Assembly (NCBI GenBank): GCA_964507615.1 | Contig: CAZDPS010000001.1 | Span: 25,777-89,776 of the forward strand | Length of the DNA stretch: 64,000 bases | Direction of reading: 5' to 3' | DNA from: an uncultured Candidatus Saccharibacteria bacterium | Lineage (GTDB): Bacteria > Patescibacteriota > Minisyncoccia > Phycocordibacterales > DATDWN01 | In this document: positions 9,114-39,262 of the stretch, one piece after another | How the letters are laid out: each line of letters opens with the position of its first letter | Position numbering within the stretch: position 1 is the first letter of the stretch | Position numbers and translations under genes: made by a program | Notes under the pieces: model-generated | Told to the model about the DNA's origin: nothing | Databases searched by the model: none | What the model saw: the letters and a program-made list of their open reading frames with translations, nothing else

Positions 9114-9205
9114 ATATAAATAAAATAGGTCTCATAAAATAACGAGCGGCCGGTCTCTACACGATAGATCCCGGCCGTTATGATATGCGCCATATGATAA
9201 TCTCC

Positions 9206-9388
9206 TCACGATGCAGCTCGGTTTTTGTCTGGCGTTTCCTGTTCCCGCCAAACAACACGTCCGCACTCTGGACAAGCCCATTTCTCCATGACTGGTCCGA
9301 TACCAGTCAAGAAAGGTACGGGTTTGCCGTTGCGATCGAGCACACGCTCGAACTCCACATCACACTTTATGCAATTTTTCTTGTCCAT
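9206..9388 (-). CDS. Small zinc-ribbon protein (60 aa), GC-rich island 1
   Basis: CIKC...CPEC pair; strong SD (aggagaggagg) 6 nt upstream of ATG; hairpin cggccgg/ccggccg (9147-9177) downstream; GC visibly above flanks. Confidence 0.6.
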   Translation of the reverse strand: MDKKNCIKCDVEFERVLDRNGKPVPFLTGIGPVMEKWACPECGRVVWREQETPDKNRAAS

Positions 9389-9436
9389 GGCACACCTCCT
9401 CTCCTAAAACAATTATACATTAAATAACAAACAGCT

Positions 9437-13094: not shown

Positions 13095-13556
13095 TTAATA
13101 CCCGGCTGGTGGCACTGTTTTCTTACCCAGCATACTTAAATTCATATTTTTTAACTCTTTATCTATTTTGAAAACAAACTTCTCTAATTTCTTCACCTCT
13201 TTTTCTGTCTTTGTAGAAAGTACGTACTCCAATGCTTTATCAAAGTCATTTTTAAATTTTTGGTTTATATCTTTCCATTTCACTCCTTTTAAAATATTTC
13301 CCACCTCATTTGAATATTCAAGAACTCCTTTCTTCATTAAAAAAGCTATGGACGGATACCCCAAATAACCTTTCCAAAAAGATGCGTTGTCATTTGACAT
13401 TACGGCATTCAATTCTGGATCATATTTTATTTCGTAAAACTTATTACCACTTGATGAAAAAACTTTACCACCTAAATCAGAAGTTTCGACTCTTCCATCA
13501 GCCACCGCACCCAGAGCTTCATAAATTTTTGTTATTGGTGGGTGTTTCCATTTCAT
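13095..13556 (-). CDS. Hypothetical protein (153 aa)
   Basis: Clean ORF, 2 nt from rnhA stop; no family recognised. Confidence 0.6.
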   Translation of the reverse strand: MKWKHPPITKIYEALGAVADGRVETSDLGGKVFSSSGNKFYEIKYDPELNAVMSNDNASFWKGYLGYPSIAFLMKKGVLEYSNEVGNILKGVKWKDINQKFKNDFDKALEYVLSTKTEKEVKKLEKFVFKIDKELKNMNLSMLGKKTVPPAGY

Positions 13557-13557
13557 A

Positions 13558-14232
13558 TTACTCTTTAAATTCTTTTATTATTTCTTCTTCATCAGCAGGA
13601 GAAGTAGATTTTTTATAACGGGCCCCAGAAACTCCATTCACCCGGGCTTTGCAGTCATCCCAAGTTTTGTGAACTTTTATTTCTCCGTCTACCATACTTA
13701 TATAAGAATAGGCTTTGCTTTTACTTTTTGTTTTACTCTTTGAATCTTTTGATTCTTTAATAGAAACATCAATACCATATCTTTCTTTGGAACCGTTATA
13801 CAAAACAACAGGCATTTTATCGGCAAAAGACGTAGCGATCACATCACACCTTTCGTTGCCTGCCGTGCCAGAATGCCCTTTTATTAATTTCCAATCAATT
13901 ATTTTGTGAGAAGTTAATTCAATTAATCTCTCCCACAAATCCTTATTTAAAACGTTCTCCTTTTGTGAAGTCTTCCATTTATTTTTCTTCCAACCTTTGA
14001 CCCAACGGGTTGCACCGTTCAGAACATAAGCTGAATCAGTATATATGGTCATCTCCCTCTCAGACGAAACCGACTCCAAGGCAGATATAACGGCTGTGAG
14101 TTCCATACGATTGTTTGTCGTGTGATCTTCTCTACCACCAAGTTCCATGGCTGAATCATCCGTAATAACAATAGCACCCCATCCGCCAGGACCAGGATTG
14201 CCTCTCGCGCTACCATCTGTAAAAATAATCAT
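13558..14232 (-). CDS. rnhA: Ribonuclease HI with C-terminal hybrid-binding (viroplasmin-like) domain
   Basis: MIIFTDGSARGNPGPGGWGAIV...TNNRMELTAV...; C-terminus YSYISMVDGEIKVHKTWDDCKARVNGVSGARYKKSTSPADEEEIIKEF resembles the RNase H1 HBD. Confidence 0.9.
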   Translation of the reverse strand: MIIFTDGSARGNPGPGGWGAIVITDDSAMELGGREDHTTNNRMELTAVISALESVSSEREMTIYTDSAYVLNGATRWVKGWKKNKWKTSQKENVLNKDLWERLIELTSHKIIDWKLIKGHSGTAGNERCDVIATSFADKMPVVLYNGSKERYGIDVSIKESKDSKSKTKSKSKAYSYISMVDGEIKVHKTWDDCKARVNGVSGARYKKSTSPADEEEIIKEFKE

Positions 14233-14291
14233 TTTTCTATTATAACAAAAACAAATAAAATAACTCTATCTACATTTGCCTTATAAGAAAA

Positions 14292-14324
14292 AGGTGGTGG
14301 TTGCCCGAGAGCTAACCACCACCT
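14292..14324 (-). terminator. Intrinsic terminator of GC-rich island 2
   Basis: Perfect 11-bp stem aggtggtggtt/aaccaccacct followed on the minus strand by tttttctt. Confidence 0.75.
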
Positions 14325-14344
14325 ACCGACGTTCTTGTGGGAGG

Positions 14345-14560
14345 TCACCGACGACGAGCTGCTATCATCTTCCCCAAACCGTCGATCAGCTCGGCCAACG
14401 CTAAGCCCAAACCCACCAAGAACGCGAGCTCACCCGTGAGTGGAATGACTGTAGCATCCAGTACGGGAATACCAAGTAGGTCGATGGGCCAGGACAATAG
14501 TCCAATCCCAGCCAGAACCAGCACGGTCGGCAGTAGTAACCGGAACAGCAACTTGATCAT
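14345..14560 (-). CDS. Small hydrophobic protein (71 aa), GC-rich island 2
   Basis: MIKLLFRLLLPTVLVLAGIGLLSWP...GELAFLVGLGLALAELI...AARRR (two predicted TM helices); SD aaggagg 5 nt before ATG; own promoter TTGACT-17-TATAAT (14605-14577). Confidence 0.6.
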   Translation of the reverse strand: MIKLLFRLLLPTVLVLAGIGLLSWPIDLLGIPVLDATVIPLTGELAFLVGLGLALAELIDGLGKMIAARRR

Positions 14561-14576
14561 GTGACCTCCTTTTATT

Positions 14577-14605
14577 ATTATAGTACAATAAAAAATATAA
14601 GTCAA
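14577..14605 (-). promoter_or_regulatory. Sigma70-like promoter for the 71-aa ORF
   Basis: Minus strand TTGACT (14605-14600), 17 nt, TATAAT (14582-14577). Confidence 0.6.
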
Positions 14606-14615
14606 GTCACATATA

Positions 14616-15019
14616 CAAAAAGGGCCCGCGTTGCAAGCAACGGGGCCCTGGTCTGAGAGAATCCGCAAATCCTCTCAATGGACCTGTTAGTCGAGTGATC
14701 GGCTCACTCTGTGCCACCGGGGACCTACCCCCCGGCTAGGACTCAGTTCTTCATTCACACTCCTTGATGAATTTGGAACCACGCGAGTCTTGGATTACCA
14801 CTTAACCAACCCGATACGGGCGTCAGCGTTCCGGCTCAACCATCACCCATTTGCCCCTTCTGGAGCTATGGACCTGATTCGACTTCGCTTTTTTGGAATG
14901 ACCATCAAGTGGTCAGACGCGTAGGCGGTCATCGAGATATTGGTCCTTATTGTTTGGGGACGGCCTTATTTGCCTTTCCGAAGGGTTTTGTGACAAACCT
15001 CTCTCGCTTTTATTTAACT
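14616..15019 (-). ncRNA. Candidate structured ncRNA of about 400 nt (unclassified), GC-rich island 2
   Basis: Bounded by promoter TTGACA-17-TATACT (15054-15026) and terminator hairpin 14621-14649 plus U-tract; no ORF longer than about 30 codons; many short GC-rich hairpins (ccgggg/ccccgg, gagtga/tcactc, tgacca/tggtca, tgagag/ctctca). Confidence 0.5.
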
Positions 15020-15025
15020 GTGTTA

Positions 15026-15054
15026 AGTATAGCACAGCACCATGTTTCTGTCAA
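15026..15054 (-). promoter_or_regulatory. Sigma70-like promoter of the island 2 ncRNA
   Basis: aatcgcTTGACA-17 nt-TATACT; the -35 box starts 5 nt after the recJ stop; flank homologous to the island 6 promoter. Confidence 0.6.
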
Positions 15055-15058
15055 GCGA

Positions 15059-16795
15059 TTAAAATATATCCACTATTCGGAGGCGAAGTTCGGGAAAATT
15101 ACGAAATTGTGATTTTTCAAGAGTTGCCACCAAGTTTATGCTGTCCCCCACACCTAGAGGCACAGTAAATTTGTCTGGAGTTGAAAAAAATGCGATAGCT
15201 GTGACATCCGAGTTTTTAGAATTTTTAAATTTCAATTCCAAATGATTTTGTTCTTTGCCAAAAAGTTTTACATTACTTATTTTTATATTTTCAAAAAGGA
15301 AAAGTGGTTTCGGATTATCTAAACCAAAAGGAGCGAACCTCTCTATTAGTCTATATGTATCCCAACTGACTTCATCCAAGGATAATTTTTTATCGAGTAG
15401 TGTATCTTCTGTCACTTTATTCTCTTTCATCATTTCCAAGAAAGCCTCGTTCAGCCTATCTTCCAAAGTGTGAATGTTTTCCTGCATAACAGAAAATCCA
15501 CCTGCACCTTTGTGTCCACCATAGTCCACAAAAACATCTTTCACTTTTTCCATAAGAGAAACAACATCAGTGTCTCCACCGGCACGACATGAACCTTTTA
15601 TTATTGCGCTTCCATTACTTCCTTCCCTTCCCCAGAAAAAAACAGGGCGATTGTGTTCATCAGAGAAACTATTTGCCACGAGTCCTAATAGACTTGGCTT
15701 CCATTCTGGATTTCCAAAAACCAAAACGTGTTTCATTGTTTCGTCACGATCTGCAATTTTTTTCTTGATTTCTTTTACCATACTTCCCACCACACCTTTT
15801 CTCTCGTCATTTTTATTATTCAAATGCTCAGCCAAAACTCCAGCTGACACTTCATCCGTAGTAGACATCAGAGAAAACGCGTCATGAGGAATACCCATTC
15901 TAGATGCTGCATTGATACGAGGGGTGATCATGAAAGCAATGTCATCCTCTGTTGCTGTTTGTTGGTTTATTTTAAGTAATGAAAAAAGTTTCTGCAGTCC
16001 AACTCGTGGACTTTTCTGCAAAACTTTTAATCCGTAAAAAGACAGGACTCTGTTCTCCCCAACGAGCGGTACCATATCAGAAAGAGTAGCGAGCCCCACC
16101 ATATCAAGCAACCACTTCTCCCAACCAACCGGAATCGTGGTTGCAATTTCTAATTTCAAATTTCTAATTTCTAAAATCAATGCTTGTACAACTTTAAAAA
16201 TAACCCCGGCACCGCATAACATTTTTTCTGGATAATCACATCCTTTTTGTTTTGGATTTATTATGGCAAATGCTTTTGGTAATTTCTTACCCGGTATATG
16301 ATGGTCAGTGATTACTACATCAATACCAAAACTATTGGCCAGATCAACTTGTGTAACATCAGTAATTCCACAATCAATAGTAATGATTAGTTTCACATTT
16401 TGAGAATTTAAATTCTCTATCGCTTCGTCATTCAAACCAAAACCCTCTTCGTTACGTAGCGGAATATAATTTACAAAATTATTGAAATTTATTTTTTTAA
16501 AGAAGTCGTGCAAAACAACAGCACCTGGAATTCCATCCGCATCATAATCACTATATATTCCAATTTTTTCATCCTTCTCGATTGCCTTCAAAATTCTATC
16601 CACAACCTTTTTCATATCCTTCAAAAGATAAGGGTCGTGAAGATGTAACAAATAATCAGGGTTGAGAAACTGTTCAGAACCCTCTACATCACTTATTCCC
16701 CGAGCACATAACATAGACCTTACAAGCGGATGATAAGGTTTCAAAGTCTCATCAACGTTCTGTGTAACAGGATTTCGTAAGGCGTATTTTTTCAT
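15059..16795 (-). CDS. recJ: Single-stranded-DNA-specific exonuclease RecJ
   Basis: DHH family motifs (IYSDYDADGIPG, ITIDCG, VVITDHHIPG); start trimmed to MKKYALRNP... Confidence 0.85.
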   Translation of the reverse strand: MKKYALRNPVTQNVDETLKPYHPLVRSMLCARGISDVEGSEQFLNPDYLLHLHDPYLLKDMKKVVDRILKAIEKDEKIGIYSDYDADGIPGAVVLHDFFKKINFNNFVNYIPLRNEEGFGLNDEAIENLNSQNVKLIITIDCGITDVTQVDLANSFGIDVVITDHHIPGKKLPKAFAIINPKQKGCDYPEKMLCGAGVIFKVVQALILEIRNLKLEIATTIPVGWEKWLLDMVGLATLSDMVPLVGENRVLSFYGLKVLQKSPRVGLQKLFSLLKINQQTATEDDIAFMITPRINAASRMGIPHDAFSLMSTTDEVSAGVLAEHLNNKNDERKGVVGSMVKEIKKKIADRDETMKHVLVFGNPEWKPSLLGLVANSFSDEHNRPVFFWGREGSNGSAIIKGSCRAGGDTDVVSLMEKVKDVFVDYGGHKGAGGFSVMQENIHTLEDRLNEAFLEMMKENKVTEDTLLDKKLSLDEVSWDTYRLIERFAPFGLDNPKPLFLFENIKISNVKLFGKEQNHLELKFKNSKNSDVTAIAFFSTPDKFTVPLGVGDSINLVATLEKSQFRNFPELRLRIVDIF

Positions 16796-16856
16796 TTCAT
16801 TAGTGTAACACACTAATATAGACATAAATAACAACAAATATGATAAAATATTGTCT

Positions 16857-17282
16857 ATGGAAAACTGTATATTTTGCAAAATAGTGAAAGGAGATCTTCC
16901 TTCACATCGGGTTTATGAGGATGATAATTTTTTAGCATTTCTAGATATCAATCCTGAGTCTCCCGGACACACTTTAGTTATACCGAAAGAACACTACCGC
17001 TGGGTTTGGGACCTGCCCGCTATGCCTGAGCAAAGCGACGGCAGGCAGGTGTCACCAAATATTGGGGATTATTTTAGAGTGGCCCAGAAAATTGCACTAG
17101 CACAGAAGAAAGCTTTCAACACCGACTTGGTTATTTCTAGAGTTGTTGGAGAAGAAGTTCATCATGCCCATATCTGGGTATTCCCTGCTTCTTTCAACAG
17201 AGGAGAGTTTGAAAAAACAGCGGGTGACAAAAAAGACTTCGCCGGAAATGCAGAAAAAATAAAAAAGGAATTAGAAAACTAA
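16857..17282 (+). CDS. HIT-family (histidine triad) protein
   Basis: MENCIFCKIVKGDLPSHRVYEDD...; HHAHIWVFP histidine triad. Confidence 0.9.
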   Translation: MENCIFCKIVKGDLPSHRVYEDDNFLAFLDINPESPGHTLVIPKEHYRWVWDLPAMPEQSDGRQVSPNIGDYFRVAQKIALAQKKAFNTDLVISRVVGEEVHHAHIWVFPASFNRGEFEKTAGDKKDFAGNAEKIKKELEN

Positions 17283-18063: not shown

Positions 18064-18149
18064 TATACGAAAAAACCCGATACAGAGAATCTGTATCGAG
18101 TGTGCAGGTAGGGCGCACCGAAGCGCCCTACCTTGAATGTGCTACCTGC
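18064..18149 (-). terminator. Tandem-hairpin terminator module of island 3 (shared with island 4)
   Basis: Hairpins aggtagggcgc/gcgccctacct (18106-18133) and cgatacag/ctgtatcg (18078-18098) followed by tttttt on the minus strand; first 41 nt identical to 24663-24703. Confidence 0.75.
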
Positions 18150-18160
18150 CCGCTCAGGAA

Positions 18161-18850
18161 CTAGCAGGCGGGCTTGCTTGCGACTTCTTCCGTCGCGAAG
18201 GCGGCTGGGGTCAGTTGCGGGAGAACGAAGCGACGCCCGTAGCCACCGTACCAGACGTAGGCGTCGGACAGCCGGCGAGCTTGGACGTCAAGGCCATCAG
18301 GGTGGACGCTCACGCCCGCAACGAAGAACCCGTTGCCCTCCTTCAGGAGAAAGAAGGTCCCGTAGCCGTCTTTGCGGAGCCAGCCCCGATGAGTCTCCAC
18401 GAAGGAGATCACTTGGTCCTGGGTCAGGACCAACTTGTCTAGATCTGCGCCGAGACTGTTGTAGATGTCGGTGAAGTCGCCATCGCGAACGAGCTCATGG
18501 ACTTCGACGTCCGTGTCGGGAGTTGCCACCCCCTCCACATCCAAGCCGTAGTTCACGAAGTCGCGGTCGATGTAACCCCGAAACACCTTGTCGACCTTGG
18601 CGATCGTTCGCTGGCCGGAGCATTCGGAGATGGTGAGCTTCGTCCCACCCAAGATGAGGCGGAGGTAGGGTTGAATTGTGAAGATCGGCTTTGGCTTCGG
18701 CACAATGTCCGCCTCGCCATCGAGGTAGGTCTTGACCATCCGAAGACGACCACCTTGACCGAGCAGGGTCACCTGTGACGGAGTGAACCCGTCTTCCTCT
18801 AGGCGATCCGACAACCACTTCATTTGATCGATTGTGTAGAGTGAGGACAT
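18161..18850 (-). CDS. Hypothetical protein (229 aa), GC-rich island 3
   Basis: Only frame with normal amino-acid composition in the GC-rich block; start taken at MSSLYTIDQMKW; C-terminus AYVWYGGYGRRFVLPQ resembles the island 4 protein. Confidence 0.65.
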   Translation of the reverse strand: MSSLYTIDQMKWLSDRLEEDGFTPSQVTLLGQGGRLRMVKTYLDGEADIVPKPKPIFTIQPYLRLILGGTKLTISECSGQRTIAKVDKVFRGYIDRDFVNYGLDVEGVATPDTDVEVHELVRDGDFTDIYNSLGADLDKLVLTQDQVISFVETHRGWLRKDGYGTFFLLKEGNGFFVAGVSVHPDGLDVQARRLSDAYVWYGGYGRRFVLPQLTPAAFATEEVASKPAC

Positions 18851-18981
18851 CGTCCTACCCTTTCTGGCACATCGTGCCAATGCTGGCCCAGCCCATGCTT
18901 TGCCACAGCAGAGAAAGCCCTGTTTTAGGACACTTTCTGTTGTGGCAAATGCAAGTAGTATTTTAAAGAACTATTTCCAGA

Positions 18982-19040: not shown

Positions 19041-19189
19041 CTTTCATAATTTGGATGAAATCCCTAGGGCTTTCAGATTTGAGACAAGGTCGCGTATAAA
19101 ATAAAAAACAATTCCGGAGGTGTACATGTCGTACATTGAGGAAATTGTTTTTTATTTTAGACGATGAGATTGGCCAAATGTGGAAGCCC
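19041..19189 (+). repeat. Family A palindromic repeat, copy A2
   Basis: gagacaaggtcgcgtataaaat...ggaggtgtac-atgtc-gtacattgagg...attttagacgatgagattggccaaat; outer stem gggcttt/gaagccc abuts the stop of the PilX-like gene. Confidence 0.7.
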
Positions 19190-24662: not shown

Positions 24663-24746
24663 TATACGAAAAAACCCGATACAGAGAATCTGTATCGAGT
24701 GTGTAGGTAGGGTGCCGAGGCACCCTACCTTGAATGTGCTACTTGC
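24663..24746 (-). terminator. Tandem-hairpin terminator module of island 4 (shared with island 3)
   Basis: Hairpins aggtagggtgc/gcaccctacct (24705-24730) and cgatacag/ctgtatcg (24677-24697) plus T-tract; C-G to T-A compensatory change relative to island 3. Confidence 0.75.
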
Positions 24747-25161
24747 GAACGCCGAGGAACCGACAGCCGCCACCCCAGCCAACGTCCCACCAGCTGAGGC
24801 CGAGGTCCCGCCGGGAGACGACCCTGTCGAGGTACGCCACGCGACGGTAGCCGGGGACCTCGCACGAAGAGCCGAGAGCGACGATTGGGAACTGCCTCTG
24901 GACATCGGGATTCTTGGCCCCGAAGGAGAGTAGCTCGTGGATCGTTGCTGAGCGGTATCCGAGCTTGTCCATCTCCAGGACTGCGTTGTCGGACGAGATG
25001 AACTTGTTGAAGTGGATGAGCTCTGCACTCACCACAGTCTCGCGGGTTCCCGTCTTGGGAAAGTTCACCTCGGTGATGCTGGGGTTGACCCAGTCGTAGG
25101 CGCCGGCCTTGATCATATCGACCAACGACAGAGCGAAATTCACAACAAATTCATACACCAT
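24739..25161 (-). CDS. Hypothetical protein (140 aa), GC-rich island 4
   Basis: SD aggaga 7 nt before ATG; normal composition, unlike overlapping frames; C-terminus WDVGWGGGCRFLGVRK. Confidence 0.65.
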   Translation of the reverse strand: MVYEFVVNFALSLVDMIKAGAYDWVNPSITEVNFPKTGTRETVVSAELIHFNKFISSDNAVLEMDKLGYRSATIHELLSFGAKNPDVQRQFPIVALGSSCEVPGYRRVAYLDRVVSRRDLGLSWWDVGWGGGCRFLGVRK

Positions 25162-25246: not shown

Positions 25247-25336
25247 GGATTTTATGGTAAAAATGACAAAAAAGGCCTGAAATAGGCCGTTTTTCCTAAA
25301 ACCTACACGGGCCAGGCCTATGTAGGTTCTAAAAAT

Positions 25337-25493
25337 CTCGTTGAAGTCGTATCTTTTGAAAGCCTCCACAACCCTCCAGCATGGTTCAGTCAATGACCCT
25401 GAGCATAGCGAAGGGCTCTTGACGGATGGAGGGTGAGGACAAGCCAGCCCATTCGCAGGAATGGGCTGGGAAGCTTTCAAAAGATATGACGAG
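25337..25493 (+). repeat. Family C structured repeat, copy C1
   Basis: P1 ctcgt(tgaag)cgtatcttttgaaagc/gctttcaaaagatatgacgag; conserved core agcatggttcagtcaatgaccctgagcatagcgaagggctcttgacgg; second copy at 38554-38728. Confidence 0.7.
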
Positions 25494-25514
25494 AAAGAGA
25501 TTTTGGAAAAACCT

Positions 25515-28487: not shown

Positions 28488-28612
28488 GAAAACTTTCAAA
28501 TTTGAGACAAGGTCGCGTATAAAATTTGAAAATAGATTGGAGGCGTACAGCAGTACGATGACAATCATTTTTAAATTTTAGACGATGAGATTGGCCAAAT
28601 ATGGAAGTTTTA
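28488..28612 (+). repeat. Family A palindromic repeat, copy A3
   Basis: gagacaaggtcgcgtataaaat...ggaggcgtac-agca-gtacgatgac...attttagacgatgagattggccaaat, immediately upstream of nusA. Confidence 0.7.
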
Positions 28613-31881: not shown

Positions 31882-31989
31882 CAAATCTGGCGCACTTCTT
31901 CGTTGCTCGTTTTGTTCGCTTCCGTGCAGTACTAAATGTACAGCTTGGTCACAAACAAAACTCCGCTTCTCGAACTACATCCAGATTTG
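31882..31989 (+). repeat. Family B palindromic repeat, copy B1
   Basis: Outer stem caaatctgg/ccagatttg; core ttcgttgctcgttttgttcgc..gtgcagtac-taaat-gtacagcttggtcacaaacaaaact; related to 39150-39262. Confidence 0.6.
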
Positions 31990-33273: not shown

Positions 33274-34353
33274 GATATGACAAAACAACAAAAAAACTAT
33301 ACGGATATAAAAATTAACCCCCTTCCAGAAAGAGAGGTGGAGATAATTGGTTCTATTACTGCAGAAAAGATGTCTCTTATGAGAGAGAAAGCCCTGGCTA
33401 AACTTAAAGAAGGACTAGAGCTTCCAGGGTTTAGAAAAGGTAATGCACCAGATAATCTAGTGGCACAGAAAGTTGGAGAGATGAGACTCCTAGAAGAGGC
33501 AGCTGAAATAGCATTGTCAGAAGAGTATCCAAATATTCTAGACGAACACAAAATAGATGCTATTGGAAGACCAGAAATAATGATAACCAAAATCGGCCTT
33601 GGAAACCCTCTTGAATTCAAAATCAAAACTTCCCTTATGCCAGAAGTGAAACTTGGTGATTACAAAAAAATAGCAACGAAAGAAGTTGCCAAGAAAACAA
33701 AAAAACCAGAGGTTACTGAAAAAGAAGTTGAGGACGTCATAAAGAATATCCAAAAAAACATTGCTCATGAAAAAATGCATTCTGATATGGGTCTAGATGA
33801 ACACACACACAGCCACGCAGAAATAAAAGATGAGGATCTTCCAGAGGTTAATGACGAGTTCGCAAAAATGATAGGTGGTTTCAAAGACGTTGCCGACATG
33901 AAAGAAAAAATCAAAGAAAACATTGTCCACGAAAAAGAATTAAAAGAGAAAGACAAGAAAAGAACAGAAATTCTTGAGGCAATAATTGAAAGTTCAACAA
34001 TTGACCTACCTAAAATAATAATAGATGGAGAACTTGAAAAAATGACGGCTCAATTCAAAGATGATATAGCAAGAGCTGGTGTGACTTACGAAGATTATTT
34101 GAAACACATAAAGAAAACTGAGGATGATTTAAAAACTGAATGGAAAGAGACAGCTGTGAAACGAGCAAAATCTCAAATTATTTTGAATAACATTGCAAAA
34201 GAGGAGGGTATAACTCCCGAGGAAGAGGAAGTTAAGAAAGAAATGGAGCATATTCTGTCACACTATAAAGATGCGGAACGTTTCAGAGTAAGAATGTATG
34301 TTGAAACGTTTCTTATGAACGAAATGGTATTCAAGTTTCTGGAAAAACAATAA
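33274..34353 (+). CDS. tig: Trigger factor (short form)
   Basis: Ribosome-binding motif ELPGFRKGNAP; C-terminal chaperone-arm-like region; start set at MTKQQKNY. Confidence 0.8.
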   Translation, partial: DMTKQQKNYTDIKINPLPEREVEIIGSITAEKMSLMREKALAKLKEGLELPGFRKGNAPDNLVAQKVGEMRLLEEAAEIALSEEYPNILDEHKIDAIGRPEIMITKIGLGNPLEFKIKTSLMPEVKLGDYKKIATKEVAKKTKKPEVTEKEVEDVIKNIQKNIAHEKMHSDMGLDEHTHSHAEIKDEDLPEVNDEFAKMIGGFKDVADMKEKIKENIVHEKELKEKDKKRTEILEAIIESSTIDLPKIIIDGELEKMTAQFKDDIARAGVTYEDYLKHIKKTEDDLKTEWKETAVKRAKSQIILNNIAKEEGITPEEEEVKKEMEHILSHYKDAERFRVRMYVETFLMNEMVFKFLEKQ

Positions 34354-34480
34354 TATTACCCTATCTGCGTTGTTGCAGTTCAATTTTGCTCGTTCACCTT
34401 ATGACAGTAAGTCTCACTCACAAAATTTCCTGCGCCTAGCATCTGGGGCAATTTATATTGCTTTTCAAAATCACAGAAGT

Positions 34481-36232: not shown

Positions 36233-36505
36233 CTAGACGGCGATCCCCGCCCTGGCGAAGGCGGTGGCCAGGGTGTTGAACCCCCTGCCACGGACCGTCC
36301 GTGCGAGATGTTCGCGGTGCTCGGCGTACGCCTTGTCCAGATCGGACTTGGCGCGCTCGGCCATCTCGCGAGCGATCTGCTCGGCAGTCGGCTTGCGACA
36401 GCCGACGCCATGCAGGTGAACGCGCTCGCTCCCGCCCGGAGTGGGCTGCGAGCTGGCGTACGTGGTGAACTGACCACACTGGGCGCACCGGATGTGCTTG
36501 GTCAT
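36233..36505 (-). CDS. Small protein (90 aa) with N-terminal CxxC, GC-rich island 6
   Basis: MTKHIRCAQCGQFTTY...GVGCRKPTAEQIAREMAERAKSDL...; SD aggagg 6 nt before ATG; Ala/Arg-rich, high-GC codon usage. Confidence 0.6.
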   Translation of the reverse strand: MTKHIRCAQCGQFTTYASSQPTPGGSERVHLHGVGCRKPTAEQIAREMAERAKSDLDKAYAEHREHLARTVRGRGFNTLATAFARAGIAV

Positions 36506-38553: not shown

Positions 38554-38728
38554 ACAGAATTTCGTTGAAGTCGTATCTTTTTCAGAGCATCCACAGGCCT
38601 TGAGCATGGTTTCGTCAATGACCCGAGCTAAGCGAGGGCTCTTGACGAATCAAGGCCGAGGACTAGAACGAACTTTTCGCTGGAAAAGTGAGTGTATCTG
38701 AAAAAGATACGACGAAAAAGAAATTCTG
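38554..38728 (+). repeat. Family C structured repeat, copy C2
   Basis: Same P1 with tgaag bulge and the same core as C1; P2 ggccttga/tcaaggcc replaces C1 ccctcc/ggaggg. Confidence 0.7.
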
Positions 38729-39149: not shown

Positions 39150-39262
39150 TCGCTTGGTCTTTTTGTCCGATTTTTTCGTTGCTAGTTTTATTTTCTCCAC
39201 GCGCAGTATTAATATACAGCTTGGTCGTAAATAAAACTTCGCGCCTCAAACTCGAACAAAAA
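39150..39262 (+). repeat. Family B palindromic repeat, copy B2
   Basis: ttcgttgctagttttatttt..gcgcagtat-taata-tacagcttggtcgtaaataaaact, directly after the hup stop. Confidence 0.6.

Follow-up and report, generated by a model that had tools for sequence, protein, structure and literature searches.

The recJ-rnhA spacer of a 64,000-nucleotide (nt) stretch of contig CAZDPS010000001.1 from an uncultured bacterium, hereafter the window, carries a 770-nt island (positions 14292 to 15058). We interpret this island as two independent, stacked, moron-like accessory transcription units inserted in a recombination hot spot, and not as one system, a reading to which we give roughly an even chance. The first unit would produce a non-coding RNA (ncRNA) of about 400 nt, named type A, between a near-consensus promoter with an extended -10 element and a strong intrinsic terminator. 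This promoter, together with the first ~17 nt, would constitute a conserved RNA slot, in which type A would have replaced an unrelated RNA, type B, and from which it would have spread recently between lineages by recombination. The second unit would be a later insertion of about 336 bp that brought its own promoter, Shine-Dalgarno (SD) sequence and terminator and encodes a 71-amino-acid (aa) two-helix membrane protein. Evidence for this reading includes related loci in which the RNA is present without the peptide gene, and from sister lineages in which the same promoter and leader precede an unrelated RNA. The loci and contigs compared with the window are labelled L001 to L125, L001 and L002 being the window's own strain.

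Two predicted transcription units in the recJ-rnhA spacer

Inspection of the sequence found every element listed for the island in the initial annotation, all on the minus strand and at the positions given below, and bore out its description of an independently promoted and terminated ncRNA followed by a separately promoted gene for a small hydrophobic protein. The promoter of the RNA, P1 (TTGACA-17-TATACT, 15026-15054), starts 5 nt past the recJ stop codon, matches the consensus at 11 of 12 positions and has an extended -10 element (TGcTATACT). Its -35 and -10 hexamers are invariant in all five lineages that have the recJ-RNA junction on the contig (L003 and L112 to L115). P1 is followed by the leader TAACACAGTTAAATAAA (15009-15025), which an alignment of six spacers revealed to be common to the type A and type B alleles, then by the body of the type A ncRNA (14650-15008), without an open reading frame (ORF) other than the short frames considered below, and finally by the intrinsic terminator T1 that ends the RNA (GGGCCCCGUUGC-UUGC-AACGCGGGCCC and U5, 14616-14649), a 12-bp GC-rich stem followed by U5 (14648-14617; stem 14648-14622). 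The GC content of the RNA is 51-52%, versus 38% for the genome.

The peptide cassette begins with promoter P2 (TTGACT-17-TATAAT, 14577-14605; 11 of 12 positions), followed by the Shine-Dalgarno sequence AAGGAGG (14565-14571), the gene for the 71-aa two-helix hydrophobic protein, which ends in AARRR (14345-14560), and the terminator T2, a perfect 11-bp stem with a T-tract (14288-14324; stem 14324-14314/14302-14292). In the whole window, seven promoter sites reach at least 11 of 12 matches, versus 2.7 ± 1.7 in composition-matched block shuffles. Two of the seven fall within the island in the correct orientation, and two further sites adjoin other GC-rich islands (25246, minus strand; 28355, plus strand).

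The peptide cassette is separable from the RNA

In L003, whose RecJ is 93% identical to that of the window, and in L114 and L115, which represent another lineage, the RNA is present, the peptide cassette is absent, and the RNA terminator leads straight into the rnhA promoter. The extra ~336 bp of the window (14610-14275) comprise P2, the SD, the ORF and T2, and in the alignment the whole unit (14275-14610) is an insertion relative to these three loci. The RNA and the peptide are thus separable. The peptide was found only in the window's own strain and in L124, a 96%-identical strain in which the only two differences in the gene both lie at third codon positions.

The 71-aa protein has no match in Pfam, PHROG or PADLOC. 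An exhaustive HMMER search returned one distant relative, P0123 (contig L125, ENA ERZ5996431, 837 nt), whose C-terminal 44 residues share 73% identity with the peptide's residues 28-71; at the DNA level, the homology continues past the stop codon into the T2 hairpin. The two sequences differ at 38 nucleotides, 21 of them at third codon positions, with 13 codons showing synonymous changes only and 12 showing non-synonymous ones. Since third-position changes prevail against this distant relative, the 71-aa frame is a genuine gene. L125 is a short contig of coverage 0.7 and 61% GC, on which P0123 is fused in frame to a fragment of a GAF domain. This fusion may reflect a true insertion event in a sensor gene carried by some high-GC bacterium, or it may be chimeric assembly; either way, the sequence shows that high-GC DNA contains a member of the peptide family.

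The initial annotation had likened the island to an RNA-antitoxin/small-toxin or abortive-infection pair, in which the peptide would be a membrane toxin and the upstream RNA its antitoxin or regulator. This proposal is not supported: the RNA is inherited without its supposed toxin in L003, L114 and L115, and the cassette was inserted separately, bringing a promoter of its own. We consider such a module quite improbable, even though the peptide looks the part. It is a small two-helix protein behind a strong SD, and, with 71 aa and two hydrophobic segments, it has the size and hydrophobicity of type I toxins (membrane peptides of less than about 70 aa). The SD segment (14569-14561) is complementary over 9 nt to a segment that spans the stop codon (14348-14340, GUGACCUCC), and the minimum free energy (MFE) structure of the peptide mRNA pairs the SD with this 9-nt anti-SD, a 5'-3' closure that can hide the SD, a feature also of several type I toxin mRNAs. 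Relatives carry genes for other small hydrophobic peptides in this spacer. The island thus shares with the type I loci hok/sok, tisB/istR and aapA/isoA a small hydrophobic peptide with its own promoter, a possible SD-hiding closure and an adjoining RNA gene. Unlike in these loci, the RNA is not antisense, occurs without the peptide, has no complementary stretch beyond chance and, at 400 nt, is far larger than known antitoxin small RNAs.

The RNA lies on the same strand as the peptide ORF without overlapping it, and the plus strand of the island has no antisense promoter above 9 of 12 matches. RNAduplex comparison of type A with the peptide mRNA was uninformative without a length limit, and a longest-complement test was used instead. 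The longest complementarity was 9 nt, versus a mean of 8.3 nt in shuffles, 31 of 100 of which reached at least 9 nt. Neither the antisense overlap nor the pairing of at least about 18 nt in trans that characterizes type I antitoxins was therefore found. As for a type III, ToxIN-like system, the RNA lacks the tandem repeats that make up type III antitoxins, and the gene downstream encodes a hydrophobic peptide without PADLOC or Pfam match.

Related loci also bear on the possibility that the RNA controls the downstream gene in cis, as a riboswitch or attenuator leader. A terminator hairpin at the end of a long structured 5' region, directly upstream of a gene, has the appearance of such an element, but we give this reading hardly any credence: the downstream gene varies, being the peptide gene in the window and rnhA in L003 and L114, and each time it has its own promoter past the terminator (11 of 12 matches in the window). 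In addition, no alternative antiterminator was identified, and no riboswitch family matched.

A conserved promoter and leader precede two unrelated RNAs

L112 and L113 are sister lineages, with 84-90% nucleotide identity to the window in rnhA and recJ. Both keep the -35 and -10 elements of the window and its leader, TAACA(C/T)AGTTAAATAAA. Past the leader, they carry an unrelated RNA of ~300 nt, type B, which ends in its own terminator, followed by TTTTCGTATATA. The divergence between the two types begins right after ...AAATAAA, so that the variable segment is bounded on its left by the leader. When the type A and type B bodies are aligned, locally or globally, the scores lie within ~1 standard deviation of those of shuffles, and a covariance model built on the 3' domain of type B has no match to type A. 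Homology suggested by eye from collinear short motifs was rejected, with scores like those of shuffles and the covariance model silent. This comparison shows a conserved promoter and leader positioned to serve alternative RNAs, and an allelic replacement between A and B.

L005 (Zambryskibacteria Baikal-deep-G185, RecJ 77% identical) likewise carries type B (nhmmer E=9e-19, covariance model 105 bits), directly upstream of rnhA and behind a homologous TTGACA-17-TATGAT promoter. Among the three type B sequences, 14 of the 52 predicted pairs are changed on both sides. In the 3' domain, 97% of the cells are paired, and shifting the partners by 1-3 columns lowers this share to 36-54%. Two invariant complementary stretches (GGAAG/CUUCC and GGCU/AGCC) suggest pseudoknots. 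Given these compensatory changes, the slot demonstrably hosts a structured RNA in some lineages. The identity of type B (87%) is close to that of its flanks (88-89%), pointing to a similar rate of change.

These alleles raise the possibility that the recJ-rnhA spacer is an idiomorphic RNA slot, in which a fixed promoter and leader express at least two unrelated structured RNAs that are swapped between species-level lineages by recombination; we advance this generalization tentatively and would sooner bet against it. As in idiomorphic loci such as the fungal mating-type, agr and pherotype alleles, unrelated sequences lie between conserved flanks and are exchanged among lineages. Unlike here, the known examples encode proteins or peptides, while the two ncRNAs share only the promoter and the 17-nt leader. 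In L122, an 82%-identical relative, the first 134 positions of the truncated contig hold a different sequence, GC-rich and full of hairpins, that adjoins rnhA on its upstream side and includes a terminator; it may be a third kind of slot occupant.

Type A has no conserved coding frame and matches no known RNA family

The longest same-strand ORF in the 400-nt RNA stretch has 40 codons, and no conserved SD-led small ORF exists among the compared alleles. The open frames of the stretch were rejected as genes, since they are not conserved between alleles, and a recoded (TGA) reading based on six-frame stop maps was discarded, the genes of the host being long under table 11. A six-frame pseudo-protein of the RNA found no match among 5.8e9 predicted proteins. 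Independent assemblies agree over the RNA, without frame-restoring indels between them, and a frameshift due to sequencing error is therefore excluded. No longer coding frame thus hides behind such an error, an objection that the initial annotation had allowed for, and its statement that no known RNA family is evident has stood up to Rfam and ARAGORN, neither of which matched the RNA.

Searched with Rfam 15 at the gathering threshold, the whole window and 16 related loci returned no family for type A or type B. At E<=10, the island, the isolated type A (411 nt) and the isolated type B (331 nt) yielded chance-level matches only (SraG, microRNAs, WT1-AS). ARAGORN detected no transfer-messenger RNA (tmRNA) or tRNA-like gene in the window, L003 and L112 to L114, and neither it nor Rfam found the tRNA-like domain and tag frame of a tmRNA. 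The covariance models of ROOL, GOLLD, OLE, raiA and HEARO did not match type A or type B, nor did the Rfam models of group I/II introns, other ribozymes and riboswitches match type A. Type A had no blastn match in phage and plasmid collections, and neither the window nor ~1 Mb of related loci contains another copy of it. Pattern scans were also run, five on viral contigs and two on metagenome contigs (JGI). On viral contigs, a 16-mer pattern gave 29 matches, equal to the chance expectation and none upheld by nhmmer, and the remaining patterns gave 0; on the JGI contigs, a 23-nt type A core pattern and a 24-nt promoter/leader pattern gave 0 matches.

A diverged housekeeping RNA lying below the Rfam thresholds, chiefly RNase P RNA but also tmRNA, signal recognition particle (SRP) RNA or 6S RNA, would have a fitting size, a strong promoter and a raised GC content, and the GAAGUC and ACAGAG strings of type A resemble CR-I and CR-V. 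RNase P RNAs of candidate phyla radiation (CPR) bacteria can indeed fall under Rfam thresholds: in 10 of 35 closed CPR genomes, the RF00010 threshold had to be lowered to ~5 bits, and missing helices were described (PMC8172020). We nevertheless consider this identity very improbable. The isolated 411-nt and 331-nt stretches have no RNase P, tmRNA, SRP or 6S match at E<=10, and ARAGORN is negative. RF00010 and RF00011 have no match at the gathering threshold or at E<=10, an inspection that covered scores above ~10 bits, the range reported in PMC8172020 being lower. A canonical P4 helix could not be drawn by eye. The slot does not behave as a single-copy RNase P ortholog would, with two unrelated sequences occupying it in ~90%-identical strains, and the non-homologous replacement of an essential RNA is implausible and would be unprecedented. 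The absence of the RNA at recJ-rnhA in most relatives also argues against a housekeeping RNA, but would by itself be compatible with a gene located elsewhere.

Threading of types A and B onto the RNase P core was attempted by eye with the CR-I-like GAAGUC/GAAAUGUCCGG strings, the ACAG strings, and a UGG-containing and a GNRA-like loop in type B; it was rejected as unconvincing, with no canonical P4.

Type A is nearly identical between diverged lineages

The MFE z-score of type A is -4.5 with its terminator and -2.2 without it, compared with -1.6 for the antisense strand, -0.06 to -3.1 for GC-rich coding controls and +0.2 to -2.0 for the covariation-supported type B. Since -2.2 lies within the range of the coding controls, thermodynamics alone does not establish an unusual fold for type A.

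Type A shows 98.0-99.8% identity among the window, L003 and L114, versus 83-92% for the recJ and rnhA flanks. Over one stretch of 205 nt (14853-14650), the window and L003 do not differ at all, and L114 has a single change, at 14701. The variable sites number eight, all transitions: four are unpaired in the MFE fold, and the other four are A-U to G-U or C-G to U-G changes that keep the pairing, with no double changes. The left edge of the high-identity block coincides with the promoter; past the terminator, the sequence differs between lineages, and the right edge of the block cannot be placed there. Such identity amid diverged flanks argues for recent lateral spread of type A, and not for constraint alone. 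Purely purifying selection is likewise disfavoured, because the island of L124 is near-identical in its entirety (two differences in the covered island, including the spacers and P2, versus 30 in rnhA), because type B tracks its flanks, and because the type A lineages do not form a clade in flank comparisons. These sequences are most simply explained by a recent replacement of type B by type A and by recombination that carried type A from lineage to lineage.

The same data could describe a functionless passenger, a foreign fragment of higher GC content that is transcribed because it landed behind the resident promoter and that is near-identical because it is recent. The near-identity of the whole L124 island, spacers included, goes beyond what selection on the RNA alone would produce, the folding z-score is modest, several other GC-rich ORFan cassettes exist in the genome, and the phage, plasmid, metagenome and protein searches returned no homologues. 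This explanation is unlikely in our view, though it deserves more weight than any of the other alternatives considered here. The RNA has a well-formed terminator of its own, its substitution for a structured RNA with covariation support is exact from leader to terminator, and all eight substitutions spare the predicted pairs. Moreover, 400 nt of useless, highly expressed sequence would seldom persist across three or four diverged lineages in CPR genomes, which are well under 1 Mb.

The recJ-rnhA spacer is a hot spot for inserts

A RecJ-based scan of GTDB species genomes placed the window in the Patescibacteria/Paceibacterota, near Zambryskibacteria, the host being an ultra-small CPR bacterium. 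The left border of the hot spot is recJ (15059-16879, minus strand; Pfam DHH/DHHA1/RecJ_OB), and the right border is rnhA (13558-14232, minus strand; Pfam RNase_H), beyond which lie the UCP014422 gene and comEC. The recJ-rnhA synteny is kept across 80 Paceibacterota loci, and the two genes are only 2-70 nt apart in most of them, indicating that the island is an insertion in a conserved gene pair. Other inserts in the spacer are a gene for a 26-aa hydrophobic peptide in L119 and L120, and a gene for a 69-aa two-helix peptide with repeat elements in L123.

A hot spot with many different inserts, a type A that spreads between lineages, and other dispersed repeats that flank GC islands in the genome would all suit the non-coding part of a small mobile element targeting this site, whether of the non-autonomous intron, miniature inverted-repeat transposable element or insertion sequence kind. 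We regard this origin as improbable: the borders lack terminal inverted or direct repeats, with only one 9-nt internal direct repeat, no second copy is present in the window or in the 1 Mb of related loci, no group I/II intron or other ribozyme matched, and the adjacent genes recJ, rnhA, UCP014422 and comEC include no transposase, reverse transcriptase or recombinase.

Several observations concern the neighbouring genes. The UCP014422 gene (13095-13556, minus strand) is present in the window and L112 and absent from L003, L113 and L114. In this clade, a TATAAT lies ~6 nt upstream of the rnhA ATG, without an SD (14233-14250 in the window), which suggests that the rnhA mRNA is leaderless or nearly so; where the spacer of a relative has no insert, 2-18 nt separate the start of rnhA from recJ, and the two genes are presumably co-transcribed. 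The spacers of L005 (3785-4246) and L006 (6366-6833) contain a stand-alone ORF of 153-155 aa on the strand opposite recJ, which by eye resembles the C-terminal part of a class II ribonucleotide reductase (NrdJ). In L005, this NrdJ-like ORF adjoins the type B RNA.

Other cassettes and repeats in the window

Two GC-rich (57-67%) ORFan cassettes comprise minus-strand genes at 18161-18853 (230 aa) and 24739-25161 (140 aa), whose products have no Pfam, PHROG or PADLOC match. They share an 86-nt, 92%-identical double-hairpin 3' module (18064-18149 and 24663-24746; ...CACATTCAAGGTAGGG...CTCGATACAGATTCTCTGTATCGGGTTTTTTCGTATA), and these cassettes therefore appear to be built from shared modules. Two smaller minus-strand cassettes, both GC-rich and with their own promoter-like and SD signals, lie at 36236-36505 (90-aa ORF, 68% GC, with a bidirectional terminator alongside) and at ~9200-9390 (60-aa CxxC...CxxC zinc-ribbon-like ORF). 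Neither ORF has a match in PHROGs or PADLOC; Pfam, which covered only overlapping ORFs at the 36-kb island, gave none either.

A palindromic AT-rich repeat of ~120 nt, which matches its own reverse complement, adjoins two GC-rich islands of the window (19070-19186 and 28493-28607) and recurs, at 80-84% identity, in the recJ-rnhA spacer of L123 (1865-1981). Other dispersed intergenic repeats, with 75-84% identity, pair 34345-34454 of the window with 2375-2484 of L123 and, within the window, 25334-25505 with 38558-38728 and 31896-31976 with 39172-39252. The tail TTTTT(C/T)GTATA(T/A) follows cassette terminators in the window (14620, 18072 and 24671 on the minus strand, 50116 on the plus strand) and in L112, L113 and L123. 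This tail could be a signature of terminators in the lineage, or else a cassette-exchange junction.

Discussion

We favour the reading of the island as two stacked, independent accessory units. They have the hallmarks of moron-like cassettes, namely their own promoter and terminator, a deviating GC content and presence/absence polymorphism. As with phage morons, both units, like the window's other GC-rich islands, run from promoter to terminator as self-contained cassettes, exceed the genome in GC content and are inserted between conserved genes. In contrast to phage morons, they reside in a cellular chromosome between housekeeping genes, not in a prophage (the neighbours are recJ, rnhA, comEC and tpiA, with no PHROG or phage DNA match), and one cassette encodes an RNA instead of a protein.

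As to function, type A would be an abundant, stable, trans-acting RNA that works via its fold, by binding a protein or ligand or as an RNA-only or ribonucleoprotein assembly, and not by base-pairing with the neighbouring mRNA. We infer this mode of action, a stable trans-acting RNA working through its three-dimensional fold, of the sort proposed for ROOL, GOLLD, OLE and raiA. Several orphan large structured RNAs act as RNA-only or ribonucleoprotein assemblies (PMC12286853). Type A resembles ROOL, GOLLD, OLE, raiA and HEARO in being stand-alone, GC-rich, devoid of coding capacity, patchily distributed, in many cases through lateral transfer, and independent of any fixed neighbouring protein gene. 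Those RNAs are strongly expressed and structured, as type A would be. It differs from them in being shorter (~400 nt), in its occurrence in a handful of strains and in a fold without covariation support. We know of no family among them that alternates with an unrelated RNA behind the same promoter. Types A and B could then be interchangeable accessory alleles filling the same functional niche, and their alternation could be akin to that of idiomorphic loci under strain-level selection, through conflict or host interaction.

Several points weigh against this interpretation. Transcription of both units is predicted from promoter and terminator sequences. The fold of type A is likewise a prediction, with a terminator-free z-score inside the range of the coding controls and only the eight transitions to bear on it, and a fold-based mode of action is in part simply what remains once the alternatives are excluded. 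Its near-identity can be explained by recent transfer alone and is no proof of function. Type A was found in only four or five closely related lineages, and the metagenome and viral pattern scans returned none. Finally, many relatives have no RNA at all in the recJ-rnhA spacer, and the RNA at this position is therefore dispensable in many of them.

Orphan structured ncRNAs and moron-like cassettes are of a known kind; two unrelated RNAs behind one promoter are unusual. To our knowledge, almost nothing is known of ncRNAs in CPR bacteria, which are uncultured and have tiny genomes, beyond rRNA, tRNA and diverged RNase P. In the genome analysed here, GC-rich cassettes that each run from their own promoter to their own terminator have accumulated, and a relative of one of them occurs in high-GC DNA. 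By separating the RNA from the peptide, our analysis removes a tempting but wrong toxin-antitoxin annotation and leaves a locus with two short, well-delimited candidate RNAs, of which sister lineages carry either one or the other behind a shared promoter. With 300-400 nt, both are of a tractable size for structure probing or cryo-electron microscopy. If both are functional, the locus would constitute a natural allele-swap experiment, with RNA genes as exchangeable cargo in a minimal genome. If the slot is truly idiomorphic, it would be a kind of locus not described for bacteria, and types A and B would be RNA-only accessory genes, possibly acting as specificity determinants in strain-level conflict or host interaction.

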